NCBI GenBank assembly: GCA_934167485.1
Contig: CAKPKL010000002.1
Coordinates: 16,422 to 80,421, forward strand
Length of the DNA stretch: 64,000 nt
Direction of reading: 5' to 3'
Origin: an uncultured Bacilli bacterium
Lineage (GTDB): Bacteria > Bacillota_I > Bacilli_A > RF39 > UBA660
Position numbers and translations under genes: made by a program. Below the pieces are notes generated by a model. It was not told the origin of the DNA. It searched no databases and was given only the letters and a program-made list of their open reading frames with translations. Shown here piece by piece: positions 1 through 48,800 of the stretch; positions within the stretch are counted from its first letter, which is position 1, and each line of letters opens with the position of its first letter.

Positions 1-525
1 AACTGCATTAGAAGCAAAATTTTTATAAATATTATTAATTAATTCTTTTATTATAACTGTCTTACCTACTCCTGCACCACCTAAAAGTCCTAGTTTAAAA
101 CCTTTTTGGATTGGTGAGAAGAAATCAATTACTTTAATGCCTGTCCAAAGAATATTATCATCAACATTTATCTCTCCTAAATCAACTTTTCTGTTATAAA
201 CATTTCTTTTTACTTCTACCTGAACAGGATTATTATTTATTATTTTTCCATATGGACTAAATACTCTTCCTAAAATCTCATCTGAATATTGAATCTCTAA
301 TCCATTTTCTTTTTTTTGTAATTCAACACCTTTTTTTAAACCAATAACACTTTCAAAAGGAATTGTGGTCGCTATCATATCATTTATTTCAACAACTTCA
401 AAAGATCTTTCTTCTCCGTTTAAATTAGTATATAAAACATCGTTAATTTTGATATCGTTATTATTAATTAAAACTTTAACATTAAGATCTGAAATTGCGA
501 CTATTTTACCTACACTATTATTCAC
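1..525 (-). CDS. atpD: F1-ATPase beta-subunit-like protein, N-terminal ~175 codons (3' end lies beyond the window start)
   Basis: Not in the ORF track because it is truncated. My minus-strand translation from GTG (525..523) reads VNNSVGKIVAISDLNVKVL...ILWTGIKVIDFFSPIQKGFKLGLLGGAGVGKTVIIKELINNI. The Walker A GGAGVGKT sits in the typical beta context (TGIKVIDxxxPxxKGxKxGLFGGAGVGKT). An in-frame TAA 8 codons upstream leaves GTG as the first possible start. The purine tract AAAGGGAAGAG lies just upstream. The start is 4 nt after the gamma-like stop. Confidence 0.85.
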   Translation of the reverse strand, partial: MNNSVGKIVAISDLNVKVLINNNDIKINDVLYTNLNGEERSFEVVEINDMIATTIPFESVIGLKKGVELQKKENGLEIQYSDEILGRVFSPYGKIINNNPVQVEVKRNVYNRKVDLGEINVDDNILWTGIKVIDFFSPIQKGFKLGLLGGAGVGKTVIIKELINNIYKNFASNAV

Positions 526-529
526 ACTA

Positions 530-1318
530 TCACTCTTCCCTTTCTCTTATATGATTAGAATTTTCTATTATCTTTTTAAATGCTTTATTCTTTTTTTCTT
601 TTCTAATCATTGTTTCCTTTTCTTCTTCTATTTTTTCTATTTTATCTAATGATTCTTTCGTTACAAGTTGTCTCATTACATTTTCTGCGGCCCAACTACT
701 TGCCTCAGCTATTTCTATTTCATAACCTATATAAAGAGAAACTAAATTTATTAATATTTCATTAATGTTTCCCTCAACTACAAAGTCATCACTGTATTTT
801 TTTTCTTGATTTTCACTTAAAGGTTCAATAGGAAAAATTACTTTTTCAACCAAACCTAACTTATTTACATTATAATAATGATTATATACAACTTTTATAT
901 TACTATATTTAAAATTAATTAAACTGTCCAATAAATAATTATTGATATCTGCTACACCTGCATAAAAACTATCTTTATCCATAAACTTTATTACATTTGT
1001 AGCCAAATTGGCATTTATTTTTTTACCTATTAATATTTTATCATTTTCTTTATCATGTTTTAATTTATCATTTACTGCAGTATTAAAGTTAGAACAAAAT
1101 CCATAATCATTACCTATATAAATAACCAAATCTTTTTTATCTTTAGGTGGTATTAAACTTTTTTTATCCAATAAGAAATTCCTATTATTTAAAATAGTAT
1201 CAATCATACTATGAAGTTCTTTTTCATACTCATTTAATCTTTCAGCTTTTTTTCTTGCTGAATTAACTCTAAGTAATGAGTGGAAATTCATGATTTTTAC
1301 TACACTCTTAACCTTCAT
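530..1318 (-). CDS. atpG: F1-ATPase gamma-subunit-like protein (short, ~262 aa)
   Basis: The ORF track gives 530..1342. The gene lies between the alpha-like and beta-like genes. The N-terminal helix MKVKSVVKIMNFHSLLRVNSARKKAE resembles the canonical gamma N-terminus (IKSVKNTxKITKAMxMVAAAKLRRA). I prefer the ATG at 1318 (AAAGAGG 6 nt upstream, 11-nt overlap with the alpha stop) over 1342. Confidence 0.7.
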   Translation of the reverse strand: MKVKSVVKIMNFHSLLRVNSARKKAERLNEYEKELHSMIDTILNNRNFLLDKKSLIPPKDKKDLVIYIGNDYGFCSNFNTAVNDKLKHDKENDKILIGKKINANLATNVIKFMDKDSFYAGVADINNYLLDSLINFKYSNIKVVYNHYYNVNKLGLVEKVIFPIEPLSENQEKKYSDDFVVEGNINEILINLVSLYIGYEIEIAEASSWAAENVMRQLVTKESLDKIEKIEEEKETMIRKEKKNKAFKKIIENSNHIREREE

Positions 1319-2642
1319 TATTAGCCTCTTTAGCAAATTCAAATTCAGATATTATTTGCTCTTTAGTTTTAGGAGAAAATTTATTTTGATTCAATAATTC
1401 AACAATTTTTTTACCTTCTATAAATTTATTTTTTAAATTATCTCCCATTTCATCCATATTAGCAAATTGATATACATCTTGTGTTTCCAAGAAACTTAAT
1501 AGTTTTAAACGTACATTAGCACCCAATTTTTTTATTTCTGGACTTTGAACTGCTCCACCTAAACGTGATACAGATAATCCATAATCAATCGCAGGTTTTT
1601 GACCTTTATTAAATAGTTTTGTTGAAAGATATATTTGTCCATCTGTTATAGAGATTACATTAGTTGTAATATAATCAGTCATATCTTCACCTTTTGTTTC
1701 AATGATAGGTAATATTGTAATTGAACCTCCATCTTTGTGTTGACAACCCTTTTCTAGTAATCTAGAATGTGTATAAAATATATCTGCTGGATAAGCATCT
1801 CTACCAGGTGTTTTACCAGAGATTAAACTTATTTCCCTGTATGCTTCAGCATGTCGCTTCAAGTCATCAATAACAACTAATACATCAAAATGATTTTTCA
1901 TATAAACTTCTGCTATTGATAAAGCTGCATAGGGTGTTAAAGATAATACTGGAGGATTATCATCATTAAAAGCTGCTACTATAATAGTATAAGAAAGAGC
2001 TCCTCTTTTTTGTAACTCAGTATATATACTTTTTACTTCTTTTTTTGTCTTACCTATTGCTACATAAATACATAACATCTTTTTATTTCTTTGATTTACA
2101 ATAACATCTAAGCACATTTGTGTTTTACCTGTTTTTTTATCTCCAACAATTAATTGTCTTTGTCCTTTACCAATTGGATATATTAAATCAATTCCAGCTA
2201 TACCAGTTTCAAGTGGTCTATTTACTCTACCTCTATCCATAATTGATACAGCTTTGTTCTCTATATTAATTTTAACTAAATTTTCAAATTTTTCTTGAGT
2301 ATATAAATCATTACCAAACATGTCTATTATTCTACCAACAAATTGATTAGAAAAATATGTCTTTAAACTTTCTCCAGTTGAGTATACTTTATCATTAATC
2401 TTAATTTTCTGACTAGTTTTTAAAACTGCTACTATAACTGAATTTTCTAGAATACCATTAACATATCCTATTCCATAATCACCTATATTAACTCTTTCAA
2501 AAAATGATAAATTTTCTAATCCAGTTACTTCTATTATAAAATTAGTAACCTTAACTACTCTTCCACACTCATAGACATTTTCTTGTTTATTAATTTTATT
2601 AATTTTATTATCTAAATACTCATTAATATAGTTATCCACCAT
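1308..2642 (-). CDS. atpA: F1-ATPase alpha-subunit-like protein (444 aa, C-terminally short)
   Basis: Walker A is GDKKTGKT (canonical alpha GDRQTGKT). Walker B region is VLVVIDDLKRHAEAYREISL. LSVSRLGGAVQ matches SVSRVGGAAQ. RBS AAAGGATGTGAT precedes the ATG at 2642. Only ~78 aa follow the SVSR motif, against roughly 140 in canonical alphas (from memory). Confidence 0.85.
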   Translation of the reverse strand: MVDNYINEYLDNKINKINKQENVYECGRVVKVTNFIIEVTGLENLSFFERVNIGDYGIGYVNGILENSVIVAVLKTSQKIKINDKVYSTGESLKTYFSNQFVGRIIDMFGNDLYTQEKFENLVKINIENKAVSIMDRGRVNRPLETGIAGIDLIYPIGKGQRQLIVGDKKTGKTQMCLDVIVNQRNKKMLCIYVAIGKTKKEVKSIYTELQKRGALSYTIIVAAFNDDNPPVLSLTPYAALSIAEVYMKNHFDVLVVIDDLKRHAEAYREISLISGKTPGRDAYPADIFYTHSRLLEKGCQHKDGGSITILPIIETKGEDMTDYITTNVISITDGQIYLSTKLFNKGQKPAIDYGLSVSRLGGAVQSPEIKKLGANVRLKLLSFLETQDVYQFANMDEMGDNLKNKFIEGKKIVELLNQNKFSPKTKEQIISEFEFAKEANNEG

Positions 2643-2659
2643 ATCACATCCTTTTTATT

Positions 2660-3409
2660 CTATATACTATAATCATAAATAATTCCTTTATAATTAATCT
2701 TTATTCCTTCATTTATACTTTTATCATATACCGTTTTTATCTTATCAGATAAATAATCAAAGTTTTTATTTTTTTGACCCACATATACATAAACAGTAGG
2801 ATCATTTTTTTCTATAAATATATCTAAAGATGTAATAAATCTATTTATCTTTATTTTATTTAAATTAATTAATTTACTTACCAATTTATATTCTTCATCA
2901 CTTAAGAATTCTTTAATATATTTTTTTTGTTCTTCTAATCTTAATCCCATAATTTTATAAACAACATCATCTGTAAATTTTTTTCTAATTTCTAAAGCTG
3001 CTTTATAATTTATATTATCTACAGTTAATTTATTATTAATAAAATTACTAACTATTTTTTCATAATCAAGACTAAATTTTTCTTTTATATCTTTATATTT
3101 TTTAAATAAACTTTGATCTTCGTATTTTGGTATAGTAAAATCATTATAATACACTTTAGATTCTTCTTCTGGTTCAAATGTCCCTATTTTCTTTAATTCA
3201 CTTAATTCCTTTTTACTCTGTTCTATTTCATTATTTAATTCATCTATTTTTTTCTTTTTCTCTTCTATCAAATAATCATAATCTTGAAGTTTATCTACAA
3301 AATACTTTTTTGTATTATAATCAATTCTTTTTACCGTACTACGAAGTGCGAAAAATAATATTGCGATTAATAATAAAGAGATTAAAACTGCTACTATATA
3401 TATTTGCAT
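2660..3409 (-). CDS. Peripheral-stalk-like protein: N-terminal TM helix, charged coiled coil, and a C-terminal domain with a delta/OSCP-like ending (possible b-delta fusion)
   Basis: Sequence: MQIYIVAVLISLLLIAILFFAL (TM), then the KKKKIDELNNEIEQSKKELSELKK coiled coil. The C-terminus DKSINEGIKINYKGIIYDYSI resembles the delta C-terminal pattern D.sliGG..v.vGd.viD.S. The gene occupies the atpF/atpH slot between the c-like and alpha-like genes. The start is 1 nt after the c-like stop. Confidence 0.5.
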   Translation of the reverse strand: MQIYIVAVLISLLLIAILFFALRSTVKRIDYNTKKYFVDKLQDYDYLIEEKKKKIDELNNEIEQSKKELSELKKIGTFEPEEESKVYYNDFTIPKYEDQSLFKKYKDIKEKFSLDYEKIVSNFINNKLTVDNINYKAALEIRKKFTDDVVYKIMGLRLEEQKKYIKEFLSDEEYKLVSKLINLNKIKINRFITSLDIFIEKNDPTVYVYVGQKNKNFDYLSDKIKTVYDKSINEGIKINYKGIIYDYSI

Positions 3410-3410
3410 A

Positions 3411-5088
<1,678 letters not shown>

Positions 5089-5108
5089 ATAAAATTTCTC
5101 CTTTCTTT

Positions 5109-8100
5109 TTATTTAGCAACTTGCGCAATAAGTTCTCTTGTTTGTGTAGAACTATTATAACTATATATATTTGCAGCAATAGATTTAGGTTCTGTTCCAA
5201 CTCTATCTTCGTATTTTAAAAGTGTTAAAAAATTTGATGAATCGTCAGAAGTGAAAATTATATTATTTTCTTGATCTAAATCTACATTAGAATATGTATA
5301 AGAATATGTACTACCATTCGTATACGTCACAGTGTAATCTATTATAGCAATTTTCGCCTTTGTTTCTGGGTTTGGATTTGCCATTCTTAAAATATAGTAT
5401 TTACCTACAGGTGGTAATATCTCCAAATTCAAATCAGAAATACTATTTATTTTTACGTCTTTAGAAAAAGATAAAACTCCTGTACTATTAATTGTACAAT
5501 AATTGATTACATAAGTATATTCGCCATTACTTGTAAAAAATTTAGTAAGATCTAGTTTAGTAGTTAGTTTGTCAAATCCAATAGGAGTATATCCAATTAC
5601 TGCTCCATCACTTTTTTGAATAATTTTAAAATGATAAACATTTGGTGCTGGATTTGGATCATATGCAGAACTTGGAAAATATGCTTTTATATCTTTAGCA
5701 CCTTTAGGAACTTCATAATTATCACATGGTTCTAATACACCATCTACATCATTAACTGTCAAATCAACAGTTGTTAGTCTACTTGAAATTCCTACTTCTG
5801 GAGAGTTATTTTTTATATTGAAAAGTTTAAGTGGATTCAATTCAAAACTTTCTAACTCTATTTCTTCAGTTGAAGATTTTACAAAAGGTTTTATTATAGC
5901 TTTAAAGTTTCCATCCATTGTACTAACGTTACCACCATCATCTATTATTTTTGTTATTATATTTAAAGTTTTAGAATTGGTTGATACATTATTTACAGGT
6001 GTCTCAACTACGAAATAATCTTCAGTTTCTCCTATGTCAGTATTAGGATTATAATTTTTTATTAAAAATTCGTTCCCTGACTCATTAACTAAATATAATC
6101 TATATGCCAAAATTTCATCATCAAGTAATTTATAATATTTTGAATAAACATTGAAACTATAATCAAGATTTTTTGTGAATTTCAGTTCATTATTACTATT
6201 AAAATTCCAATATTTAGTTGAATATGTAGCATTTTTATTATTTAAAGTTAAATTGCTAATTGTATGAATTGGGTTATTTTGTACTTTATAGCCTGAATAA
6301 TAGAAATAATCTTCAGTATTATTTAATGTATATACTAGTGAATAATAATAATATTTTGGGTCACTCGCTTCTCTTTGTAAATTGTTTAAATTGATAATAT
6401 ATTTTTTTGTGTTAGTATCATCAGAAGTGGTTATTGTTGCACTCTCTTGTATACCTTCTTTTGTAGTAACTTCTTTTTTTATCAAATCTACAGATAAAAT
6501 TTCATTTTTAGCGGAATCTGTTAAAGAAAACTTTAGAGTGTTATTTGAATTATTATTATTTATTCGTTCTAAATTTTCATTACTAATTTCAAATGTAATT
6601 TCTGCACCATTTGTCCTATAACTAACAACTCTATCTGTTAACTCCATGACTTTATTATAATCCAATTGATAAAAATCTTTATAATCACCAGTTGTATTTA
6701 CATTCTTATTATTAAAATCAACATCATAAGCTATTATACTTGACATTTCAGCTTCATTAGCATGTATTAGTATATTATTAAATCTTCGTCCAATCCATTT
6801 TGTATCAGATGATGATGAATTATATTCATTTAAAGAAGTTTCAAATTCGCCATTATATTGATATTGTTTATACTTTCCTGACTCATTTGATGTAGAATAT
6901 ATATCTGTAGAAAGAATACCTCTAAATTCTCCATCACTCCTTAAATAACTATTTATATCTTGACTATCTGCCCTTTTTATAAATAAAGCTTCTGAATTAT
7001 CGCTATTAATTTTACCACTATCATATACTATTGAAAATGATGGTATAAAAACATTTTTTTCATCTTGTGAAGTTTTTATTCCATAATATTCAAATAAGTT
7101 AGATGAAATTGAAACATTATAATGATTATCATTTTTAATAAATTGGGTATATTTTTGGCCAATTTTTAAACCGAAAATGTTTGCATCACCTAAATTTTTA
7201 TTGACATAACAAGGAGTAGTATCTTCTCCAATAGCACCAAAGCTTTTGCAATATGCTTCGTCAAATGGTAAATCTATGTTTACTTTTCCATCTGAACTGC
7301 TAATAACAACATTAAGATTTTCTAATGATTTAATACTTTCTACCTCATCTTCATATATTGTATTGACAACTTCTCCTTGACCTCTATTCTCTAAAATGTT
7401 TAATTTAAATCTTTTGAAACTTTTTGCCAATATACTAAAATTTTGAATGCCATTCTCTAAGTTTATTGATTGTTTTTCTTCGCTATTAGCAATAACTTTA
7501 AGTGTTTTTGCAGCATTATCAGGATCATCTTTTTGAATTTGAAATTTAATATTTTCACCATCATACTCTTTTATGTACCCTTTAATTTTTGCAGCTTGTT
7601 TAAGTGAAAATAAACTTATATATTTTACTTTTCCATCTATTTCTTCTTCTTTTTCATTAAGATATGTAGAAATACCTTTTAAGCAATAATACTTACCTCT
7701 AGAAAGTTCTTGCTTCTCCATATTGATAAATAATTTTATATCATTATCTTTATCTGTTATTGTTTTATTCCCTGACGTTATCGATGTTTTCCCTTGTATT
7801 GATGTTTCTTCTGTACATTCCTCCGATTCGTAAATTTCATATTTAAAGCTATTTATCGATTGTCCTTTTGTACTCTTTATTGGTTTAATTTCTAAATCAT
7901 ATCCTACTATTGTATCATCATCCAAATCTTTGTTTTTATTACAATCATTTGAGTCACATGATGAATTTGGAACTTCTACTGCTTTTATCTCAAAATCAGG
8001 AATATTATCAATAATATTTAATTTAAAACTATTTGTATCCTCGTATTTTTTTTCATCTCGATCTTCAACTTCAGTTTCTTCTTGTTTTAATCTAATAGGA

Positions 8101-10694
8101 ATTTCATAGTTTTTTGTAGAAATAGATTTAATTGCTACTTTATAATATTGTCCTTCTTCCAAATCATAATTATCATTTCGATATGAGAATTCGGATGCTT
8201 TTAATTCTATTGATTCTCCATTTTTTATTGTTTCTAATTCATCACTTTGATTTTGAGTTTGTGGTACTGTTCTAGAAAAATTAGACAATGTCTCACATTC
8301 ATTAGATTGATTACATCTTTTCAATTCTAACTTCATATAACCTAAATTATCTCCCGATTCATAACTAACAGGTGTATCAGGATCAGAATTAAATGTTCTG
8401 TTAATTTTTAATTTAAAACCAAACATTTCATCAGTTAAATCTTGCGAATCTAAATTTTTATAAATTAAATACATAGGTGCTGGCTCAGCTGTTTTAACAA
8501 TTTCATATCCGATATAAGTAGCAGATGATGCTGTTTCTAAATAAACATTTAATATATATTCTGTATTTGGTTTTAATTCTTTTATATCCACAGGGAAAAC
8601 AAATTCGGTAGAATTTTGACTACCACTAACGTCTACTGAGAAACTTGTTGAATATGTCCCTATACCACTATTTTCTTTAAGTACAATTTTAAAACTTCTT
8701 ATATTATGCATAGAAATATATTGTTCTTCATCTAATATTTTTATCTGGCCACTAATTCTTTCAGAAGTTATTGCTGCCCCTTCTACAAATCCTATAACTT
8801 TTGGATATTTTATATTGCTTGTACTTATTATATTAGAATTATTTGATGTATAAATAATTGTTTTTTGATTATCATCGAACTCAACTGTAACAGAGAAATA
8901 ATATGATTGTCCTTGACCTAAATCATCTATACTTAACGTAACTGATTTATATTCATTTTGTGTTACTGTTTGTATTACTTCTTCGCTTTCAGTGCTATAT
9001 ATATTATATGTAATAGATTTAATACCATTATTGTTATCAATTAAATTATCTACTGATAGTTGTATAGTATTTTTTTGATTATCAAGTATTGCTTGTAATT
9101 TAGCACTCTCTACAGTCGGTTTTTGTTTTAATGTTTTTAATTTATGACTTATTGATAAATTTGGAATGTTTTCTGATGAGTACTCATCTGTATCATACTG
9201 TATTTTTGTAACTTTTAATTTATAATTTGAGTTAGAACGTAATGGTTCTTTTTCTTTCGTATTTTCTGAATTTGCAGTTGCATATACAATATTACTATTT
9301 TCATCGTAACTTGCTTTTGTTTCTTCTACAATAATTTGATCATCAGAATCAACGATTACATAACTAAAGGCTTTAACTTTTGAATAAGCATTTCTGTATA
9401 TTGCAAAAGATACAGTATCACTTGTTACATAATCCTCTGTAATCTCAAGTCCTATGTCAAGTGTTCTAAATATTTTAGATACAAAAGTTCTATCATAAAC
9501 AGTATCTTCTATTTTATATTGACCCTTAATATTAAGTGTGTATTCAGAATTTGGTTTTAGTTTTGTATAATAATTAATTGTATAAATTAAACTACCCTCA
9601 TCCCAGTCTTCTAAATTTTCTAGTACTGTTCCTGTAGAATTATCAACTAACTCTACTTGCCTATTTCCATAAAGTACACTAGATTTATCTTCTAATGTTA
9701 TTTTTAAATTTTCAAATCCTATAGATGTAACTTCCATACTTTCTACTGTAAAAGTAGGTTGAATAAAATTATCTTCATTGTCAACATTTTCTCCAGGAGT
9801 TACTAAATTACCTAATTGATCAGATATATCTATGTCATTTCCACCGTTATTTTGATTGTTACCTTGATTATTTCCTTGGTTACCTTGATTATTTTGATTA
9901 TTACCTTGATTATTGTCATCTGCTGGTGTGACTGGTAATTTTTCTTCTGGTAAAACTTCAATGTTATCATCTGCATTTATTACCATATCTGCCATAGTTA
10001 AATATTTTATATTATTTTTACTTATTGTCTTATATTCAAGATTTATTTTAATATTATCGGAAATAAGATATAAATTAGAAGCTATTGTTTGATACTCTGA
10101 TTCATCGTTATATAATTTAATAACATTTTTGTTTATATATTCTATTTCAACATAGTTTTTTAAACTAACTGTTTGACTATCAGAAAATGAAATAACAATA
10201 TTATCTGCTGCCATTAAATATTTTTTATCAGATATTTTAAATAATAATTTTTGAAAACTTAAGTTCTCATTTAAATTATTAATTTCATACCCTTTTGAGG
10301 TTTTTGTCAATATAGATTCAGAAAAAATATTATAATAAGATATTATTTTAGAATCTATATCTGTTAAATCAATTGCAACTCCATCTTTTAATGCCATTAT
10401 AGAGTTATTATTGTAATGAACAAAATTATCTTGAGTAACTACATTCTTTTTTCCATCAGAATTATTAAAACTGTATTCGTCATTAGCATGTTTTGTATAT
10501 TGTGCTTTAGCATCAAAATATATTTTGTTAATTTCACTATCATTATTTTTTTTATAAACATTGCTTATAATATATCCGCCATCTTGGAAATTCTTTATTG
10601 ATTCCTTTTTTGTATTTATAGCCAATATTAACCCTAATACTAACATTATCAAAGCGATTATTGTAATTATAATTATTTTAATTTTTGTTTTCAT
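5109..10694 (-). CDS. Giant membrane-anchored surface protein (1861 aa) with repeated FN3-like modules
   Basis: The ORF track gives 5109..10781. I prefer the ATG at 10694 (MKTKIKIIIITIIALIMLVLGLILAI is the TM; RBS AGGTGAG) because the upstream extension covers a promoter. It has the Gln/Asn/Gly linker NNQGNNQNNQGNQGNNQGNNQNNGGN. Recurrent FN3-like motifs are PNSEYTLNIKGQYK, SNSNYKLKVTKIQY, GQSYYFSVTVEFDD and PNTEYILNVYLE. Confidence 0.85.
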   Translation of the reverse strand: MKTKIKIIIITIIALIMLVLGLILAINTKKESIKNFQDGGYIISNVYKKNNDSEINKIYFDAKAQYTKHANDEYSFNNSDGKKNVVTQDNFVHYNNNSIMALKDGVAIDLTDIDSKIISYYNIFSESILTKTSKGYEINNLNENLSFQKLLFKISDKKYLMAADNIVISFSDSQTVSLKNYVEIEYINKNVIKLYNDESEYQTIASNLYLISDNIKINLEYKTISKNNIKYLTMADMVINADDNIEVLPEEKLPVTPADDNNQGNNQNNQGNQGNNQGNNQNNGGNDIDISDQLGNLVTPGENVDNEDNFIQPTFTVESMEVTSIGFENLKITLEDKSSVLYGNRQVELVDNSTGTVLENLEDWDEGSLIYTINYYTKLKPNSEYTLNIKGQYKIEDTVYDRTFVSKIFRTLDIGLEITEDYVTSDTVSFAIYRNAYSKVKAFSYVIVDSDDQIIVEETKASYDENSNIVYATANSENTKEKEPLRSNSNYKLKVTKIQYDTDEYSSENIPNLSISHKLKTLKQKPTVESAKLQAILDNQKNTIQLSVDNLIDNNNGIKSITYNIYSTESEEVIQTVTQNEYKSVTLSIDDLGQGQSYYFSVTVEFDDNQKTIIYTSNNSNIISTSNIKYPKVIGFVEGAAITSERISGQIKILDEEQYISMHNIRSFKIVLKENSGIGTYSTSFSVDVSGSQNSTEFVFPVDIKELKPNTEYILNVYLETASSATYIGYEIVKTAEPAPMYLIYKNLDSQDLTDEMFGFKLKINRTFNSDPDTPVSYESGDNLGYMKLELKRCNQSNECETLSNFSRTVPQTQNQSDELETIKNGESIELKASEFSYRNDNYDLEEGQYYKVAIKSISTKNYEIPIRLKQEETEVEDRDEKKYEDTNSFKLNIIDNIPDFEIKAVEVPNSSCDSNDCNKNKDLDDDTIVGYDLEIKPIKSTKGQSINSFKYEIYESEECTEETSIQGKTSITSGNKTITDKDNDIKLFINMEKQELSRGKYYCLKGISTYLNEKEEEIDGKVKYISLFSLKQAAKIKGYIKEYDGENIKFQIQKDDPDNAAKTLKVIANSEEKQSINLENGIQNFSILAKSFKRFKLNILENRGQGEVVNTIYEDEVESIKSLENLNVVISSSDGKVNIDLPFDEAYCKSFGAIGEDTTPCYVNKNLGDANIFGLKIGQKYTQFIKNDNHYNVSISSNLFEYYGIKTSQDEKNVFIPSFSIVYDSGKINSDNSEALFIKRADSQDINSYLRSDGEFRGILSTDIYSTSNESGKYKQYQYNGEFETSLNEYNSSSSDTKWIGRRFNNILIHANEAEMSSIIAYDVDFNNKNVNTTGDYKDFYQLDYNKVMELTDRVVSYRTNGAEITFEISNENLERINNNNSNNTLKFSLTDSAKNEILSVDLIKKEVTTKEGIQESATITTSDDTNTKKYIINLNNLQREASDPKYYYYSLVYTLNNTEDYFYYSGYKVQNNPIHTISNLTLNNKNATYSTKYWNFNSNNELKFTKNLDYSFNVYSKYYKLLDDEILAYRLYLVNESGNEFLIKNYNPNTDIGETEDYFVVETPVNNVSTNSKTLNIITKIIDDGGNVSTMDGNFKAIIKPFVKSSTEEIELESFELNPLKLFNIKNNSPEVGISSRLTTVDLTVNDVDGVLEPCDNYEVPKGAKDIKAYFPSSAYDPNPAPNVYHFKIIQKSDGAVIGYTPIGFDKLTTKLDLTKFFTSNGEYTYVINYCTINSTGVLSFSKDVKINSISDLNLEILPPVGKYYILRMANPNPETKAKIAIIDYTVTYTNGSTYSYTYSNVDLDQENNIIFTSDDSSNFLTLLKYEDRVGTEPKSIAANIYSYNSSTQTRELIAQVAK

Positions 10695-10730
10695 AGTCTC
10701 ACCTACTCTTAAGTTTATACCTATATTATC

Positions 10731-10759
10731 ATTATATATGATTTTTTCTTTTTTTTCAA
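10731..10759 (-). promoter_or_regulatory. Sigma-A-type promoter TTGAAA-17 nt-TATAAT for the surface-protein/ATPase operon
   Basis: Minus strand reads TTGAAA (10759..10754), a 17-nt spacer, then TATAAT (10736..10731). It lies ~37 nt upstream of the ATG at 10694 and directly downstream of a terminator. Confidence 0.55.
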
Positions 10760-10778
10760 TATTTTTATTTGGATTTAA

Positions 10779-10806
10779 CAAAAAAAATCTAGAATTTTTC
10801 TAGATT
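10779..10806 (-). terminator. Rho-independent terminator after the 154-aa gene
   Basis: Stem AATCTAGAA / TTCTAGATT (10786..10794 and 10798..10806) with a 3-nt loop, followed on the minus strand by a T-run (plus-strand A-run 10779..10787). Confidence 0.7.
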
Positions 10807-10807
10807 T

Positions 10808-11272
10808 TTATTCGCAATAAACATAACTTCTAAGAATCCCTAAATAAGATGAATTTTCTTCTTTTAAAGCTGTAACAATTATATAATCTTTTTCCTTCAT
10901 TAATCCATATTTTAATGCATATTCTCCTATTTGTTCATTTAGTTTATCTATGTATTGATTTAAAAGATTATACTCTATTTTATCTAATTTATCTATTATT
11001 ACTATGAATTCATTAGTTTGCTCATTTACGCCAACTATATACTTATTTGCTTTACTATAGTCAATTGGTAAATAATTTGTTGCCTCACTATTTTCAATAA
11101 TAACAAATTGATCTTTATTAAAACTATTAATATCATTAAAAATATCTTCTATATTTATTTTTCCATAACAATTATTCTCTAAATTATTATTATTAATATT
11201 AACTATAAATATTAATATTGAAAGTATAAATATAAGAGTTAAAGGAATTAAATATTTTATATATTTTTTCAT
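10808..11272 (-). CDS. Small membrane-anchored protein (154 aa), translationally coupled to the giant gene
   Basis: N-terminal TM is YLIPLTLIFILSILIFIV. ATGA start/stop overlap with the 3032-aa gene (11269..11272). No motif recognised. Confidence 0.7.
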   Translation of the reverse strand: MKKYIKYLIPLTLIFILSILIFIVNINNNNLENNCYGKINIEDIFNDINSFNKDQFVIIENSEATNYLPIDYSKANKYIVGVNEQTNEFIVIIDKLDKIEYNLLNQYIDKLNEQIGEYALKYGLMKEKDYIIVTALKEENSSYLGILRSYVYCE

Positions 11273-14200
11273 GATACACCTCTTAATCTTTTTCGATTTA
11301 TTAACAAATATAAAGCTCCAAAAATTGACACAATTGAAAGAGTAAATATTATTATACCACTTAAGGATTTTTCTTGTTTAGTAGTATGAGAAGTATTATA
11401 GAATTCTACTAATTCATAATCACTATTTATTTTATCATTCTCTGTTGTTATGCTTTCAGGAGAAGTTAATACTTCCTCTAAATTATAAATATCATACTTT
11501 TTAGTATTTGCATTATATACCATAGTATAATTTTTACCACTTGATGTTATAGAATTATTTCCTGTTATTTTTCCTTTAGCATCGCTAATTGAAATTTCTT
11601 CTATTTTTATCTTTAATTTTTCCATGTTTTTATAATTAGATGATTTTGATAAATTTTTTATAACTTCTTCTCTAGAATCTTCTGATAACTTAGATTTTAT
11701 ATATTCTAAGAAACTCTTATCTTTGGTTATATTAGTAAACACTAACTCACCTGTTTGATAATTAAATGCATATATTCCTTCATTTTTATATCTTATAACA
11801 GCTATTGTTGATGATGAATATAAATCTGTAAATAATTCTTCAATATCCTTATTTACTAGATCTGAAGGATATTTTATATTATTTTTCAAACTATATAATT
11901 CACCTTTATTATCAAGAATAATTTGAATTTCATTATTATTATAATTATCAATTATGTAAGAATTCTTTTTATTATCAAGGGATGAATCAATTATACTTAA
12001 TACACCATTTTTTACAAGAACTTGGTAATTTTGAATACTGCCATCTATATCAGTAAAATTATAATATGTATTTATATGTTTTTCATTGTAGATAAATGAA
12101 TATAAAGGTATACTTTCTAAAATACTATAATCCACATAACTATCAACATATTCTTTTGTATCTATATAATAAATACTATTATCACTAGTTAATACTTTAT
12201 TGTTATATAAATTTATAAAACTTCCCATTATAGAATTTTCTTCTCCATATAAAATACCATTATTAATATAATATACCGAATCTCCAACTAAACTAATCTT
12301 CTTTGATAATTCGGATGGATCTATAGTACTAGTCTTGTAATTACTTCCATTTGAAACATAAATTTTTATCGGAGACTTATAATCATAACTTATAGTATAA
12401 ACTCTATTATTTATACTAATATCATAAGATTTATAATCACCTATTTCATAATAGAAATAACTATTTTGATCTATATTTGAAAATTCAATATTTATTTTAT
12501 CCACATCACTAGCATACACGTCATATTTTATCTTAACTGGATTAGAGTATGCTACTGCATAATTTCTCATCATACGCATTTGTGGAGCCATCAATCTTGT
12601 AGTTTGTGTCGTTGCATTCGGAATTTTTACTTTTTCTTCATCACTTATTTGTGGATTTGAACCTCCTTCTACGAATACTGGAAAGTAGATATTTGACAAT
12701 TTATAAATACCCTGAGAACCTACAAAACTATTTAAATCAGATGGTGTATTAATTTGGATTTCTGAAGGTTCATTAGTATCAGAGTATTCCATGAACTTAC
12801 TTTCCTTAGATAAATCAAATGCATTAGATATATTAACATAGGATGCTGATGGAACTAAATTTTCTATTTGTCCAAATCCAGAACCAACATTTTTACCTAT
12901 TAAATCTCCATAGAACAATGATTTATTATATTTTTTATCTTGAGATTGTGGAGTTTTATAAATTTTTCCTATTAATCCTCCAGCAGTTCCTTCATTAGAA
13001 TCTGCTTCTATAATACATCCTTCAACTAAATTATTAGAAAATGAAATATTTTGTGAATAATCAGTTGAATTATTAATATAACCTATTATTCCTCCAGATG
13101 AATACTTAGAACTAATTTTTGTATTTAATACTATGTTATACCTAAAATTTGCCGGACCATCTGTTATGGTATCATGTTTACCCAATATACCACCAGCAGC
13201 ATTTTCAGAAACAGCAATGAAAGAATTTGAAACTACATTTCTAAACGTTTCATGTGAGTAATATGTTCCAATATATCCAGCCATTCCACCTGTATTTTTT
13301 TTAGCATATATAAGTGAATTCTTTAAATATGAATATTGAATCGAATACATAAAACCTCCTATGCCTCCAACTATATTTGCATTTAAAGGTTCATATGCTC
13401 TATTTCTTATAGTTGAATCTGATAAAGAATTTGCCAAATCAGACGGTGTTAATTCAGATAAATTTTTTCCAAATTTCTCACTTGTTGTACTTGCAATTAC
13501 TACATTTGTTGCATAATCATGTCTTCCATAATATCCATACCCATATGTTCCTCCTACATAAGTAGATTCTCCTGATGTTTCATGCAATTTTGCCGGTGGA
13601 TTTATTATATTAGGATCTGATGTTATTAGTAAATTTTCTACGTTGTAATTGTTAAGATACATATGAGTAAGAAGACTACCTGTAATTCCACCTACGCGAG
13701 ATGCCTTATCAATATATATTATATTAATTTTATCATTAGTAGAATTCAAAGTACAATTTACACAGTCACCATATCCAACAATGCCACCTACATACTGTCT
13801 AGGTCTAATATATGAATTAACAGTATCTGTATTTAACCATAGTCCCTCATAACCTTGTATTGTAACATTGGTTAGTTTAATATCCGATATAAAATAATCT
13901 ATGTAGCCTGCTATTCCACCCAAATGTGAATAAGCCTCAATAGTAACATTGGAAGCAATTATGTCTTTAATATGAATATTTGATTCTTTATCTTCACTAG
14001 TAGAATATCCAACCAAACCGCCTACATAATACCTTCCTCTCATTCTAATATCATCCATTGTAACACTATTTATATATCCATTACTTAATCCTACTATTCC
14101 AACAACATTAGCATAATTTATTATATCTATTGATTTAAAATCACAATTGGTAATTGTTCCATTGTTAAATCTAACTATAGCACTATAATTACTATTTTGT

Positions 14201-17200
14201 CCAGATATTTTTATAGAATTAAATTTTACATTTTTCATAGTGCCATCAAGCCAATATATAAGCGAATTTCTTATCGAATCTTTATCAGTATAATGATTGT
14301 CATTTAATTCAGATACACTAATTGTTTTATTATTGCCATAAAAATTATCCAAACTTTTTTGAATCGATAAAATATTTCTATTTTGATATTCTTTACCATT
14401 ATAATAAATTTGTTTATCTATATTACCATCTGGTTCTATTTTTATATCATCAAGCAACAAAATATTTTGATATTTACTATCATATCCACCACTAGTTAAA
14501 AAGTTTAAACTATCCCAATCGCTAGTAGACTCTATATGTTTGAAAAATTTAACAGTTAATTTTTCATTTCTATTTTCATTTTCTACCTCTACTTCATAAA
14601 TACTATAGTATACATTATTGGTAGGTTTAATTTCGTAGCGATAATACTCATCTTCTTTTTGGAGAGAATTAATCTCCAAATCTTTAGATTTATTTTTACC
14701 TTCTTTTACATATAACTCTTTATTAGTTTTTAAAATAGCACTTGTAGCACAAGCATTTTTATAGTCATTATCTTCTTTAAAAAGAGAATCTAATTTATCT
14801 AAACATCCTTCATCTATTACATATTCAATTGAATAATCAAAATCCTGATCTGATTTTTCTCCGACTTTTTTATCTTTTACATTTTGTTCTACAAATGAAG
14901 AGTTAGATAAATATGGTAAATATTCCTTATTACCTGCTTCACCATTTTGTAAATATATATTATTATAAATGTCATCTGCATTATAAACATCTGTAAAAGA
15001 TGTAAAACTTGGAACATTGTCAATTGTAAAATTATTAGTTTTAACAGTATCTAAATATGTTATCGAATCATAGTTTGGTTTCCCCTTTGGATTTAATATA
15101 GTTCCTACAAATAAATTATTAGAGATGGAGTTAGAAATAGATAAACGCTTCAAATAATTCCCAACTATTCCACCTACGTTTGAACCTTGGCTAAACAAGG
15201 TCATTGAACTATAACTATTTCTTACCTTTCCTATAGAAATTGTTCCTGCTATTCCACCTACATTTGAAAGCTCAGTATCAAATTTTCCTGTTGAATAACA
15301 ATTATTAATATCGATAAAGTTAGGATAAGTTGCACTTGCATAACCTATTATTCCTCCTACAGTTTGATATCCAATTAAAGTATCATATGTAGCATTAAAT
15401 TTCAAATTATAAGAATAACTATTACTTATTTTACCGTCAAGTCCATAACCAATTATTCCGCCTACATTAAAGCGATATAATTTTCCATTTTGACTGCTAT
15501 CTTTATTAATAGTTGCATTATTTACTGAAATTTTATCAAATTCTGAACCTGTTGAATAAGCTGTTAAACTACCAAGATAAACAGTAGTTGTATTGTTTAT
15601 TCCTCTCCTATCTGCTAAAATATCTAAATCAGTAAGATCAACATTATCGATTTTTGCTAAAGTTGTTAATCTTATAAATCCTATATAGTACTCACTCGAG
15701 CTTAATTTCATGTTTTTTACTTGTAAATTACTTAATTCACCAGTATATCCATAGAAGAAGTATCCCCTTTTTATGTTATTATTTCCAAAGTCTATTGTAT
15801 GTTGATTACCATCAAATTTTGCTGAATAAGTCTCCAATTTTGGCAAACAACTAGAATTAATCTCATTATAAGTTTCATTTTGAGCTTGATTTAAACAAGC
15901 CGTACCTCCAATCTCAGTATTATTATTTAAACTAATATTGCCAAGCATATATATATTACTATTACTATTAATTGCACTTATTAATCCTTCATAGCTTGCA
16001 ACACGCTTATATAAAGTAATATCTATTATTCTTGGGTTAGAATCTGTATAATATGATTTTGTTATCTCATCACCTAAAGACGTTTTATAAGTCATACTTA
16101 AAATATCATAATTTGATAAAGCTTGTTCATTTTCTTCATCTATAGTTAAAGTTAAAATTAAATTTGATATTTGATAGTTTTCATCATAACCACCATTTTC
16201 AAGTTCATCCTCGCAAGTTGTACATATCTGTGCAGTCGCCTTATCTACTTTAATATTTGTTATTTCCAATTTATTAGGGTTACTTATATATACTCTAACC
16301 TTAGCTACACCATCTTCCCTATTATCTTTAATAGCTTCTGTTGATATTATATCTATAGTTGAATCTTTAAGTTCATAAGTAATTTCTATAGGTACTTGAT
16401 ATTCTTTCATAAATTCACTCATGTTTACTATAGGATAATATCCTGAAGTAATAGAATAAGGATCTTTGTCTCCTGCTTCTGGCTCACTATCCGAATTTAA
16501 AATAACATCAAGTACACCTGCATTTCTAAGCGAAGCTTTACTAATTTTTTTGTTAAAACTATTTCTATAAGAATAATTTAAAGAATTAGTATCAACATAA
16601 TAATTATTACTTACCTTTCCTTTAGAAGAGTATATGCTTGGACCATTAGTTGTCGAATTATGTGTTGAAGTTGCAACAGAAAGTGTATTATATATTGTAC
16701 TAGAATTACGATTTTCTTTTGATATAAAGGCAATTCCAGATGAACCTTTTACATAATTTTCTTCTGTTGATAAAACATCTGTTAAATTATAAACATTTGA
16801 AATGACACCTTCATTATAATAAGTAAACGTACCATGACTGGAAGTAATATCTTTCAAATAAATTTTGCTGTCATTGTTTGAAATAACTGCACCGTATTTA
16901 ATTTTCGCTCCAGCATAATTATAATAACTTACCAAACTGGATACGCCATATGTGTATATATCAGTATCTAAATATATAACAAAGTTTTTCAAAGTTCCAT
17001 AATTTAATCTAGCCAAAAGCCCCATTTTATTAGCACTACCAGTAGTATTATTTTGTTTTACATGAATAACAAAATTTTCTATTGTTCCCCTATTTACTTG
17101 TACTAAGCCAGCTAAATCTTGAATTACTCCAGCATAGTCTAATTCATAATAAACCAAAGCATTTTTTAAAACTCCTGTTTTAGAAACACTAGAAAACAAA

Positions 17201-20367: not shown

Positions 20368-20406
20368 ATTATCACCATACCATTCGACAACTATCTTAAT
20401 AACATA

Positions 20407-20435
20407 ATTATAACATATTAACAATTGTTTGGGAA
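20407..20435 (-). promoter_or_regulatory. Candidate extended -10 promoter (TTCCCA-17-TGTTATAAT) for the giant gene
   Basis: Minus strand reads TTCCCA (20435..20430), a 17-nt spacer ending in TGT, then TATAAT (20412..20407). It lies ~40 nt upstream of the ATG at 20367 and follows a terminator. Confidence 0.45.
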
Positions 20436-20443
20436 TTATTTTA

Positions 20444-20472
20444 CAAAAAAAATAGAATTTTTATCTTCTATT
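20444..20472 (-). terminator. Rho-independent terminator after the Cys-rich protein gene
   Basis: Stem AATAGAA / TTCTATT (20451..20457 and 20466..20472) with an 8-nt loop, followed by a minus-strand T-run (plus-strand A-run 20444..20452). Confidence 0.65.
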
Positions 20473-20479
20473 TTCTAAC

Positions 20480-22792: not shown

Positions 22793-22816
22793 TTTGTCAC
22801 CTATCTTGCTATAAAA

Positions 22817-22845
22817 ATTATAACAAATAATAATATAAAATACAA
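22817..22845 (-). promoter_or_regulatory. Promoter TTGTAT-17-TATAAT (with TGn extension) for the Cys-rich protein gene
   Basis: Minus strand reads TTGTAT (22845..22840), a 17-nt spacer ending in TGT, then TATAAT (22822..22817). It lies ~25 nt upstream of the ATG at 22792. Confidence 0.55.
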
Positions 22846-22846
22846 T

Positions 22847-22869
22847 AAAAAGTTTATCATTTGATAAAC
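22847..22869 (-). terminator. Terminator hairpin after the 90-aa gene
   Basis: Palindrome GTTTATCATTTGATAAAC (22852..22869), followed on the minus strand by CTTTTTATT. Confidence 0.5.
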
Positions 22870-22924
22870 CTTTAAACTTTGGTAAATATTCTATATTTTT
22901 CTGCAATTAAATCTAAATTACCTA

Positions 22925-23845: not shown

Positions 23846-23894
23846 AATACCTCCCTATATTATACATTTTTATTATAACACAAAAGAAAAGCAC

Positions 23895-27495: not shown

Positions 27496-27503
27496 ATTTA
27501 CTC

Positions 27504-27698: not shown

Positions 27699-27717
27699 AC
27701 AATTCCTCCATTCTCTT

Positions 27718-27752: not shown

Positions 27753-27769
27753 TAATTTTTACAAAGTTT

Positions 27770-48799: not shown

Positions 48800-48800
48800 A

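Follow-up and report, generated by a model that had tools for sequence, protein, structure and literature searches.

A derived F-type ATPase gene cluster with a predicted ion-blind ring, linked to giant surface proteins in walled gut Firmicutes

Bacterial F1Fo operons normally follow the order atp(I)BEFHAGDC. F-type ATPases that perform mechanical or surface work rather than ion transport are, to our knowledge, confined so far to wall-less mycoplasmas, and the only ectodomain proteins that we know to ride on the ring of a rotary ATPase are Ac45 and PRR of the V-ATPase. The c-ring of that enzyme surrounds the transmembrane (TM) helices of the single-pass proteins ATP6AP1/Ac45 and ATP6AP2/PRR, one of which has a large luminal domain (10.1101/2022.05.01.490144). 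Among the mycoplasma systems, the Type 3 "F1-like X0" ATPase (MSC_0618/0619; MMCAP2_0575-0581) is needed for MIB-MIP antibody cleavage (PMC3369863, PMC12994834). Among its parts are a 12-TM protein, a small protein of the cytoplasm, and a protein of ~87 kDa that carries two TM helices at its C terminus; there is no c, b, or delta subunit, and alpha is without the N-terminal delta-binding helix (PMC12994834). The Type 2 G1-ATPase of Mycoplasma mobile (MMOB1610-1670) is an F1-derived gliding motor associated with very large surface "leg" proteins, and its ATP hydrolysis is thought to move surface structures (PMC11864180). The papers that defined the mycoplasma F1-like ATPases reported no equivalent in other bacteria (PMC3369863).

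Here, we characterized a 64,000-nt stretch of DNA (the window) from an uncultured Bacilli bacterium. It carries seven open reading frames (ORFs), all on the minus strand and located where a preliminary description had put them. In the direction of transcription, these encode a giant surface protein (giant 1), a 472-aa surface protein (p472), a c-like subunit, a 249-aa protein, and alpha-, gamma-, and beta-like subunits, and the junctions between them are, in order, 20, 13, 1, and 17 nt, an 11-nt overlap (between alpha and gamma), and 4 nt, as described earlier. A sigma-70-like promoter match (TTGAAA-17-TATAAT; 10731..10759, minus strand; 11/12 matches), noted in the preliminary description as consensus-like, is present 37 nt upstream of the giant 1 ATG and is a plausible giant 1 promoter as far as its sequence goes. 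However, matches of this type are no more common in this 25% GC DNA than expected by chance (110 found versus 108 expected), so the site by itself proves nothing. The terminator placed upstream of it is really in the sequence: an AT-rich, terminator-like hairpin (AAATCTAGAA-AAA-TTCTAGATTT) followed by a T-run (10780..10807, minus strand) can be read directly after the stop codon of a gene for a 154-aa protein, and it was missed by the terminator scan because its stem has just two G-C pairs. Between the seven ORFs, the sole terminator-like match of the scan lies inside the giant 1 gene and is at chance level, in agreement with the earlier reading of this interval. The 154-aa protein (10808..11272, minus strand) has an N-terminal hydrophobic segment and no family matches in Pfam or NCBIfam. 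Its gene is lineage specific, being seen only on contigs of the window's own organism, and its membership in the system is uncertain.

The unit is larger than the interval 1..10759 first assigned to it: it extends past position 1 and takes in the gene for a second giant surface protein (giant 2; 11269..20367, minus strand), which is ~3032 aa long from its first ATG (the mechanical ORF runs to 20424 and encodes 3051 aa). The window cuts the unit at both ends. Gut-metagenome contigs that match the window exactly supplied what lies beyond position 1, i.e., the rest of beta and the genes for an 83-aa protein in the epsilon slot, a protein with 5 TM helices (5-TM protein), and a 236-aa single-pass protein (p236).

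The families of the alpha, beta, gamma, and c subunits were confirmed by Pfam and NCBIfam. The beta-like gene (1..525, minus strand) has a GTG start at 525, and the N-terminal 175 of its 452 aa precede the cut at the window edge; the full protein was read from the exact-match contigs. It contains a Walker A motif (GGAGVGKT), GVGERSREG (including the catalytic GERSREG), a Walker B motif (LLFIDN), and an EELSEED loop. Its best PDB matches are canonical Bacillus-type F1 beta subunits (396 bits), and its score against the NCBIfam atpD model is borderline (460.4 against a cut-off of 462.85, i.e., 2.4 bits short). The alpha-like subunit (1308..2642, minus strand; 444 aa) carries GDKKTGKT and the arginine-finger motif SVSRLGG, matches Pfam PF00006 at 250 bits, and has a canonical Bacillus-type F1 alpha as its best PDB match (326 bits). 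It aligns to residues 12-431 of the 502-aa Bacillus-type protein, with the N-terminal segment kept and ~60 C-terminal residues absent, and it scores below the NCBIfam cut-offs (PRK13343, 464 versus 554; TIGR00962, 431 versus 484). More than 120 close relatives of alpha, ~440 aa in length, were found. The gamma-like central-shaft subunit (530..1318, minus strand; 262 aa), present in 49 loci, matches Pfam ATP-synt (PF00231) at 88 bits and the NCBIfam gamma model at 53.8, far under the cut-off of 194. As judged from their sequences, beta, alpha, and gamma form an F1-type core in which beta is catalytically intact; an alpha3beta3 stoichiometry is assumed from homology.

The question of whether an epsilon gene follows beta had been raised previously; the atpC slot is occupied by the 83-aa protein. 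Its size corresponds to the N-terminal domain of epsilon only and is too short for the C-terminal helical hairpin. It aligns colinearly with the epsilon N domain over 79 columns, but with a weak E value (hhalign E 0.12); only 2 of the 46 family members match the epsilon Pfam model PF02823, weakly (E 0.17 or worse), and a sequence search of the PDB gave no match. The protein may be a C-terminally truncated epsilon, in which case there would be no inhibitory helix and the enzyme would be hydrolysis competent.

The c-like protein (3411..3656, minus strand; 81 aa) matches Pfam ATP-synt_C at 33.5 bits and retains the GxGxGxG ring-packing motif, the gamma-binding RNPE loop, and the C-terminal FFNP. 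In a residue-by-residue alignment, its Ala60 stands opposite the essential Glu that binds the coupling ion in solved c subunits (Glu61 in the chloroplast protein, Glu65 in that of Ilyobacter tartaricus). This column is occupied by Thr (20), Ala (16), Ser (4), Val (2), or Met (2) in 44 c orthologues from two classes, and no Asp or Glu occurs in residues 48-76 (helix 2) of any of them. The ring is accordingly one that we predict to be ion-blind, with no membrane carboxylate. It is still under strong constraint, as indicated by a mean pairwise identity of 68%, which is comparable to those of alpha (65%) and beta (68%). No atpB lies within the cluster, and the earlier observation that subunit a is lacking was upheld by both sequence and fold. 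The sole polytopic cluster protein, the 5-TM protein (~177 aa), is the least conserved component (23% mean identity); its family alignment contains no invariant column and hence no conserved Arg. It has no Pfam, NCBIfam, or PDB match by sequence, and nothing significant emerged from a fold search (its best match had an E value of 0.28, and subunit a of Bacillus PS3 ranked only 34th, with E 3.2). The protein stands where an a-like stator might sit. The missing c carboxylate in 44/44 orthologues, the lack of a recognizable subunit a, and the scores of alpha and beta under the NCBIfam equivalog cut-offs all support the preliminary conclusion that this is not a normal proton or sodium ATP synthase.

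The delta subunit, also listed previously as lacking, is instead present in the 249-aa protein (2660..3409, minus strand). No sequence-level match to this protein was found in Pfam, NCBIfam, or the PDB. In its AF2 model (pLDDT 85), residues 2-75 form an N-terminal TM helix that runs on into a stalk helix, residues 77-96 form a disordered linker, and residues 97-246 form a delta/OSCP-like helical bundle plus a beta domain. When the model was compared with the PDB by Foldseek, the top 27 matches were all ATP synthase delta/OSCP subunits, the mycobacterial b-delta fusion among them (E 2e-3 to 0.4; probability 0.28-0.99, with 17 of the 27 at ≥0.8). On the basis of this model, the protein is a b-delta fusion that would serve as the stator stalk. 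The canonical peripheral stalk of b plus delta/OSCP is thus kept in fused form.

The surface proteins share a common plan. In p472 (3670..5088, minus strand; 472 aa), a conserved cytoplasmic MRK..KN..FNxFG motif is followed by an N-terminal TM anchor, an ~200-aa membrane-proximal domain, an N/G-rich linker, and a beta-rich C-terminal part. Giant 1 (5109..10694, minus strand; 1861 aa from an ATG behind an AGGTGAG ribosome-binding site; mechanical ORF to 10781) has a single N-terminal TM anchor, a conserved membrane-proximal domain to about residue 280, an N/Q/G-rich linker, and a long variable ectodomain. Giant 2 has TM segments starting at residues 29 and 3019; its N-terminal anchor with a p236-type membrane-proximal domain leads into a long ectodomain with a GLUG motif (Pfam Glug match) and ends in a C-terminal TM helix and a basic tail. 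The membrane-proximal domain is common to all four single-pass proteins (hhalign E 2.7e-9, 6e-9, 6e-7, and 7e-7): that of p472 is homologous to those of giant 1 and p236 (E 2.7e-9 and 6e-7), that of giant 1 aligns with those of p472 and p236 at 96% probability, and that of giant 2 aligns with the p236 family at 92% probability (E 7e-7). Where two surface proteins had been described, there are therefore four paralogous ones, the upstream 3051-aa giant included. Their description as FN3-like fared less well, as fn3/Ig-like matches exist but are weak and under the Pfam thresholds, and giant 1 of the window has no Pfam matches at all; the giant of Kineothrix alysoides carries Big_3_2 and collagen repeats above the Pfam threshold.

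In strains with identical alpha, the first ~400 aa of giant 1 are identical and the remainder is ~50% identical. Such a conserved base with a hypervariable distal part suggests an exposed structure that varies by strain and could be an adhesin or a phage/immune target. None of the eight non-catalytic components matched a PADLOC anti-phage defense model, and no MIB or MIP domain was found in Pfam scans of most window ORFs of at least 100 aa. The TM helices of the surface proteins are poorly conserved, which argues against a tight, specific packing of these helices. In three species (L023, L045, and L053), the 5-TM protein and p236 are encoded by one ORF of 405 to 407 aa. This is the only fusion observed, and it ties a surface protein to the presumed stator side rather than to the rotor.

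The gene order recurs in ~50 Firmicute species, where median gaps between neighboring genes range from -8 to +20 nt, indicating that the arrangement is more than chance. The cluster occurs in Lachnospiraceae, Peptococcia, Erysipelotrichaceae, and Bacilli metagenome-assembled genomes (MAGs). Its hosts are walled members of the Clostridia and Bacilli from the guts of humans and animals, and at least two of them (Kineothrix alysoides and Candidatus Merdisoma sp.) have been cultured. All 44 loci long enough to hold them contain the c and b-delta genes. The linkage to surface-protein genes, on which the preliminary description had staked its interpretation, is kept in relatives: in 31 of 37 loci, the gene immediately upstream of c is p472-like, and this gene is itself preceded by a giant in 24 of 25. 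Most Clostridia loci have a second giant on the downstream side, an orthologue of giant 2 of the window; in Lachnospiraceae, Erysipelotrichaceae, and Peptococcia loci, where this giant directly follows p236, the two are colinear from residue ~20 (phmmer E 3e-81 to 4e-36). Of ten loci with a second gene order (order B), mostly from Bacilli/"Tenericutes" MAGs, all retain the 5-TM protein along with the ATPase core, but eight have no giants and carry several ~230-aa single-pass proteins without detectable homology to the shared domain, so the giants are not obligatory partners.

Taken together, the locus looks like an ATP-driven surface machine and not an ATP synthase. The reading we favor, with a probability of roughly 0.5, is that it encodes a derived F-type rotary ATPase that would hydrolyze ATP without moving ions, with a set of paralogous single-pass surface proteins, including the two giants, as the probable recipients of its mechanical energy across the membrane. 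The mechanical or energetic coupling to these proteins is suggested by synteny and by one gene fusion. ATP hydrolysis would turn gamma, epsilon, and the c-ring against a stator composed of b-delta, the 5-TM protein, p236, and possibly giant 2, and the load would be one or more surface-protein anchors. These anchors might sit inside the ring, by analogy with the positions of Ac45 and PRR in the rotor of the V-ATPase. The conserved membrane-proximal domains and the long strain-variable ectodomains could then receive torque or cyclic strain, and candidate outputs are the control of adhesion, surface movement, or work done through the wall. The earlier interpretation as a whole is thus supported in part, and the observation underlying it is confirmed.

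More tentatively, the cluster may represent an unrecognized class of prokaryotic surface motors, in which an F-type rotary engine has an ion-blind c-ring, the rotor or stator carries the TM anchors of the giants, and ATP turns or strains wall-spanning filaments. Such a class would be widespread in walled gut Firmicutes, including Lachnospiraceae, and might be a free-living relative ancestral to the mycoplasma Type 2 and Type 3 systems. A literature search found no paper describing such a system, which appears to be undescribed so far. The cluster also amounts to a natural experiment in which a c-type ring and a peripheral stalk were kept and the ion site was lost, i.e., an F-type rotor freed from chemiosmosis. 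It makes the question of how F1 torque or strain crosses the membrane to surface proteins approachable in organisms that can be grown and perhaps engineered.

The alternative that survives best, although we consider it rather unlikely, is a non-rotary switch or anchor, in which the ring and the 5-TM protein form a static base and the F1-like head toggles the conformation of the surface proteins (e.g., adhesin on/off or ligand release). The same has been proposed for the mycoplasma Type 3 system with MIB-MIP (PMC12994834). The 5-TM-p236 fusion, as a membrane-level association on the presumed non-rotor side, and the poor conservation of the TM anchors fit a switch, and an ion-blind ring could equally serve as a static membrane anchor. 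However, the full rotor-stator set is kept (gamma, the epsilon-slot protein, a c-ring with its RNPE loop, and b-delta), which a switch would not obviously need, and c is conserved as much as the catalytic subunits.

A dedicated export or assembly ATPase, comparable to FliI/FliH/FliJ, would power the insertion, translocation, or wall-threading of the 2000- to 3000-aa surface proteins rather than act on the mature ones. We judge this to be improbable. In its favor, the ATPase genes are flanked by genes whose very large products have N-terminal signal-anchors, the FliI/YscN models score best in NCBIfam once the F-type ones are set aside, and the loss of ion coupling in the ring means that the ATP energy must go elsewhere. 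The subunit set, however, is F-type and not type III (alpha and beta are separate proteins, and both a c-type ring and a delta-like cap are present), and F1 models give alpha and beta scores two to three times higher than FliI/SctN models do. The cluster contains no export-gate homologue, the ATPase occurs without any giant substrate in 8 of 10 order-B loci, and strains do not differ in the membrane-proximal domain of the giants, a pattern to be expected of a permanent partner.

An ion-translocating ATPase with an unconventional site, built from other polar ring residues (H/Q50, S51, and T/A60) and the 5-TM protein, is very improbable. Polar positions are indeed conserved at the start of c helix 2 (His in 22 and Gln in 17 orthologues at residue 50; Ser in 32 at residue 51), and the best PDB match of c is the c1 subunit of Acetobacterium woodii, one hairpin of which is also without a carboxylate. 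However, every characterized F/V/A rotor ring known to us uses at least some carboxylate sites, whereas none is present here in any copy, and a partner as poorly conserved as the 5-TM protein, with no invariant residue, is ill suited to line an ion path. Least tenable of all is a housekeeping F1Fo ATPase/synthase with fast-evolving Fo subunits that adjoins surface-protein genes by an accident of operon packing: the order c-b-alpha-gamma-beta-(epsilon slot) does copy atpEF(H)AGDC, and alpha and beta are closest to canonical Bacillus-type F1 (beta within 2.4 bits of the atpD cut-off), but the helix 2 carboxylate is missing throughout, no subunit a with a conserved Arg is recognizable in the cluster, giant and p472-like genes stay linked to it in both Clostridia and Bacilli, and a membrane subunit is fused to a surface protein.

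A derived surface-acting rotary ATPase, as favored above, can be placed among known systems as follows. The locus shares with canonical F1Fo (atpIBEFHAGDC) the order c-b-(delta)-alpha-gamma-beta-(epsilon), the closest sequence relatives of alpha, beta, and c, the catalytic motifs, and the delta-like fold. It differs in having no subunit a, a c without the carboxylate, fused b and delta, an alpha that is ~60 C-terminal residues shorter, an epsilon-slot protein of N-domain size only, and four surface-protein genes inside or flanking the operon. Membership in the canonical family was rejected because of the absent ring carboxylate, the absence from the cluster of an a subunit with a conserved Arg, and alpha and beta scores under the atpA/atpD cut-offs (borderline for beta). 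The mycobacterial b-delta subunit (7njk_d and 7nkd_d among the fold matches) likewise joins a membrane-anchored b-type helix and a delta domain in one polypeptide, but it is ~445 aa long and works with a second b subunit in an ion-coupled enzyme; the stalk helix here extends only ~50 residues past the membrane before a 20-residue disordered linker. The N-ATPase (atpDCQRBEFAG) is similarly a second, laterally spread F-type operon with a non-standard order and extra small membrane proteins (PMC2881411), but it has subunit a and an Na+-binding c with a carboxylate. The present proteins are not members of that family (alt_F1F0 beta, 409 versus 752; alpha, 387 versus 750; gamma, 24.8 versus 282; c without a carboxylate). 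Nor do they belong to the type III/flagellar export ATPases, as alpha and beta are distinct paralogues rather than one homohexameric ATPase and score 180-217 against FliI/SctN cut-offs of 380-620. The V-ATPase is V-type and ion coupled, and its ring-associated proteins are not homologous to those described here.

The mycoplasma systems cited as precedent in the preliminary description are apt in concept, but NCBIfam scores far under the cut-offs exclude membership in either family. For Type 2, beta scores 400 versus 850, covering only profile positions 242-685, and alpha scores 392 versus 600 (glide_MMOB1660/1670); in a PDB search with beta, G1 beta reached 329 bits versus 396 for canonical beta. 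A large N-terminal extension of G1 beta dimerizes two hexamers into chains, whereas the 452-aa beta here has no extension. The leg genes of Mycoplasma mobile are not known to lie in the ATPase operon, and the Type 2 membrane partners differ from those here, as do those of Type 3. The Type 3 system resembles this locus in being an additional F1-derived module (alpha/beta/gamma/epsilon-like) that is clustered with genes for membrane proteins beside surface-protein genes, and in the proposal that it passes energy from ATP through the membrane to proteins of the surface (PMC3369863, PMC12994834). Its models were nevertheless not matched (beta, 399.5 versus a cut-off of 570; alpha, 312 versus 520), and the gene content differs, as this locus has a c-type ring subunit, a b-delta fusion, the alpha N-terminal segment, a 5-TM protein, and N-terminally anchored surface proteins. 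The hosts of Type 3 are Mollicutes, whereas those here are walled Firmicutes. With 544 representative clusters at 50% identity for b-delta alone, and with members in walled gut Clostridia and Bacilli, the family described here is larger than, and different from, those of the mycoplasmas.

The ATPase genes and their putative surface partners form a compact series on the minus strand, which runs, in 5′-to-3′ order, through giant 1 (5109..10694; 1861 aa), the single-pass protein p472 (3670..5088; 472 aa), a c-like subunit (3411..3656; 81 aa), a 249-aa TM-plus-helix protein initially described as a stalk (2660..3409), and alpha-like (1308..2642; 444 aa), gamma-like (530..1318; 262 aa), and beta-like (1..525) subunits, the last being clipped at the window edge to 175 of 452 aa. 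The ORF positions and junctions (20, 13, 1, and 17 nt, an 11-nt overlap, and 4 nt) agree with the preliminary description, and the alpha, beta, gamma, and c assignments made there were recognized by Pfam and NCBIfam. The reported promoter-like sequence (TTGAAA-17-TATAAT; 10759..10731) is present and is followed by AGGTGAG and an ATG at 10694; at the base composition of this DNA (25% GC), such matches are about as common as chance predicts (110 found, 108 expected). The proposed terminator also exists: at 10807..10780, directly 3′ of the stop codon of a 154-aa gene, an AT-rich hairpin precedes a run of T; the terminator scan missed this hairpin because it contains too few G-C pairs.

Human gut metagenome contigs (Hadza and others) whose encoded alpha is exactly the same protein extend the locus past position 1: they complete beta (452 aa) and then encode an 83-aa protein in the epsilon slot, a 177-aa protein in which five segments are hydrophobic (the 5-TM protein, in the place of subunit a), and a 236-aa single-pass protein (p236), after which unrelated genes follow. 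On the upstream side, giant 2 (11269..20424), a 3051-aa ORF with a TM helix at each end, is orthologous to another giant, whose gene lies directly 3′ of the p236 gene in other genomes (phmmer E values of 3e-81 to 4e-36; colinear from approximately residue 20). Loci with a giant in this position occur in Lachnospiraceae, Erysipelotrichaceae, and Peptococcia. The interval first proposed for the unit (1..10759) thus covers the middle of the system, but the unit runs beyond the window start and includes the upstream giant 2; with the downstream genes, this makes a system of about twelve genes.

The conservation of this arrangement was assessed with 52 loci obtained from one alpha scan of species-representative genomes, whose ORFs were searched with the proteins of the window organism. 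The same cluster was recovered at nearly every locus. Among loci with sufficient flanking sequence, the c gene and the 249-aa protein gene were each present in 44 of 44, a p472-like gene lay directly upstream of c in 31 of 37, and a giant lay directly upstream of the p472-like gene in 24 of 25. Neighboring genes of the cluster are separated by median gaps of −8 to +20 nt, and the 83-aa gene is always followed by a gene for a 5-TM protein (164 to 209 aa). Ten loci, mostly from Bacilli MAGs, have the order alpha-beta-83aa-5TM-gamma (order B), and in 8 of these the giants are replaced by several single-pass proteins of ~230 aa. Carriers include Kineothrix alysoides and a Candidatus Merdisoma isolate; MAG carriers include Roseburia, Butyrivibrio, Peptococcia, Erysipelotrichaceae, Bacilli, and "Tenericutes." The 249-aa family comprises 544 representative clusters (50% identity) at E ≤ 1e-3 and 414 at E ≤ 1e-10.

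The clusters present on four contigs of a single Hungatella MAG have alphas that are 90 to 100% identical, so that strain heterogeneity rather than paralogy accounts for the apparent multiple copies. Locus L056 (JBQKHF010000004.1), labeled Thermoguttaceae and thus as a planctomycete, agrees with the locus of a Roseburia sp. MAG (L015) exactly in its cluster coordinates and almost exactly in its scores, suggesting a mislabeled or contaminated assembly. In the complete 1.46-Mb chromosome of a Bacilli MAG (L049; CP091726.1, 8911..14142), the cluster is broken into many short ORFs, with alpha, beta, gamma, and stalk all fragmented, which could reflect either long-read frameshift errors or real decay.

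The catalytic core retains the motifs of an F1 head. Beta carries Walker A GGAGVGKT, GVGERSREG, LLFIDN, and an EELSEED loop, and alpha carries GDKKTGKT and SVSRLGG. The best matches of both are canonical Bacillus-type F1 subunits (396 bits for beta and 326 bits for alpha), the Mycoplasma mobile G1 beta scoring lower against the window beta (329 bits). The alpha C terminus is ~60 residues shorter than the canonical one. In many alpha homologues of 540 to 730 aa (including P0078, P0113, and P0071), long, low-complexity acidic tails, such as EVPVT(D/E)NYYQT repeats, replace the missing C-terminal domain. An interpretation of homologues in this size range as b-alpha fusions was rejected: they are alpha proteins that either end in an acidic repeat tail or owe their length to an ORF extended upstream.

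Profile searches of Pfam, NCBIfam, and PDB sequences yielded no significant match for the 249-aa, 5-TM, 83-aa, p236, p472, or giant proteins, and AF2 was therefore used for the 249-aa and 5-TM proteins. The model of the former (pLDDT 85) consists of a single helix (residues 2 to 75), a disordered linker, a helical bundle (97 to 201), and a small sheet. Its top 27 PDB fold matches were all delta/OSCP, including the mycobacterial b-delta fusion (E values from 2e-3 upward; probability up to 0.99). As modeled, the protein is a b-delta fusion, and the delta subunit earlier reported as missing is present within it, fused to b. The confident 5-TM model (pLDDT 85) had no significant PDB fold match, with Bacillus PS3 subunit a at rank 34 (E = 3.2). 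This protein is also the least conserved part of the system (23% mean identity, no invariant residue) and is not recognizably subunit a. In both position and size, the 83-aa protein corresponds to the N-terminal domain of epsilon. In hhalign comparisons its family was colinear with E. coli epsilon alone (nonsignificant; E = 0.42) and, over 79 columns, with four canonical epsilon/delta sequences (nonsignificant; E = 0.12), and a member-by-member Pfam scan gave no support for epsilon; epsilon is its probable, though putative, identity.

The c-like protein retains the glycine ring-packing motif, an RNPE loop, and a C-terminal FFNP. Its Ala60 occupies the column of the Glu that is essential in solved c subunits; in 44 c orthologues this column holds T, A, S, V, or M, and helix 2 is free of D and E throughout. 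By mean pairwise identity, c (68%) is nevertheless on a par with alpha (65%) and beta (68%). The c-like protein thus has no ion site. An odd ion pump is a less probable reading of the cluster than a motor.

Only two surface partners had been proposed. Giant 1, p472, p236, and giant 2 each have an N-terminal TM anchor followed by a ~200-residue domain, and these membrane-proximal domains are homologous. Pairwise BLAST among three of the regions was nonsignificant, and the relationship is visible only by profile-profile comparison (giant 1 versus p472, 96% probability, E = 2.7e-9; giant 1 versus p236, 96%, 6e-9; p472 versus p236, 92%, 6e-7; giant 2 versus p236, 92%, 7e-7), which indicates that the four are members of one family. 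Small-variant single-pass proteins (clusters C7, C10, and C9) could not be significantly related to this domain. In three loci (L023, L045, and L053), one ORF of 405 to 407 aa encodes both the 5-TM protein and p236, tying a surface protein to the membrane sector. Giant 1 occurs as two allele types among strains with 100% identical alpha (window 5109..10694 versus 1766..7534 in L001 and 1784..7534 in L006): the first ~400 residues are identical and the remainder (residues 400 to 1861) is ~50% identical, and lengths range from 1887 to 1922 aa. This pattern fits a fixed base with an exposed, diversifying distal part, which looks like the outcome of diversifying selection or recombination.

In the p472 family, a cytoplasmic N-terminal motif, MRK..KN..FN(I/L)FG (window 3670..5088, residues 1 to 20), is conserved before an otherwise unconserved TM helix and might be where a partner, cytoplasmic or in the ring loop, makes contact. 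The gene immediately upstream of giant 2 (20480..22906), likewise on the minus strand, encodes an 808-aa protein with an SpaA/prealbumin-like domain, of a type usually seen in the pilins and adhesins of Gram-positive bacteria. At 38506..40277, a 229-aa collagen-triple-helix-repeat protein adjoins a TPR-containing GT2 glycosyltransferase, and giant 1 of K. alysoides likewise has collagen repeats. Several proteins of 377 to 476 aa, which combine an N-terminal methylation motif of the prepilin type with DUF6273 or Lcl_C-like domains at the C terminus, occur at 27796..28995 and 48899..50032 and in L001 (15019..16407); one, strain variable (460 to 476 aa), lies directly 3′ of the cluster, and no pilus-assembly genes were seen near them.

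The presence of FtsW/RodA, an LtaS-type sulfatase, and LiaF genes indicates that the window organism is a walled Firmicute. A defense system or mobile element was rejected: there was no PADLOC match among the eight noncatalytic components scanned and no plasmid match, and the flanks encode housekeeping proteins (IleRS, DnaE, Tex, FtsW/RodA, HrcA, and GrpE). Across the whole 64-kb window, no match to an Rfam family attained the threshold. Almost every ORF of ≥100 aa in 1..64000 lies on the minus strand, and all 2-kb windows but one show negative GC skew, consistent with one replichore with strong co-orientation.

Taken together, the F1-type head is intact, a stator stalk is present, the c-type ring subunit lacks an ion site but is under strong constraint, and there is no subunit a; the linkage to surface proteins is genetic and conserved and, in one case, physical. 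The central idea of the preliminary description, that an ATPase may energize, or be mechanically coupled to, giant surface proteins, survives with amendments to delta, the unit extent, and the number of surface partners. We infer that the enzyme would be an ATP-driven rotary or strain-generating motor whose load is the surface-protein module, and we give this reading roughly even odds (~0.5). The anchors of the surface proteins may contact or fill the ring, in the way that the single-pass proteins Ac45 and PRR have their TM helices enclosed by the V-ATPase c-ring (10.1101/2022.05.01.490144). Against a motor stand the poorly conserved TM anchors and the absence of giants from 8 of 10 order-B loci. 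A static switch is less probable than a motor, as are an export ATPase and a housekeeping enzyme.

The cluster is a real, conserved variant of the repurposed-F-ATPase theme, widespread in gut Firmicutes. Full-text literature searches aimed at it found no description, and it is apparently undescribed so far; the studies of Type 2 and of Type 3 ATPases covered Mollicutes only and assert that no equivalent exists elsewhere (PMC3369863). It fails the membership tests for canonical F1Fo, N-ATPase, FliI-type ATPases, and PADLOC defense systems. Closest in way of working are the mycoplasma Type 2 (gliding) and Type 3 (MIB-MIP) F1-like ATPases (PMC3369863, PMC12994834, PMC11864180). However, the window ATPase misses the models of both families by wide margins and lies outside them, and the mycoplasma membrane partners include a 12-TM protein and neither c nor b, unlike the cluster described here.
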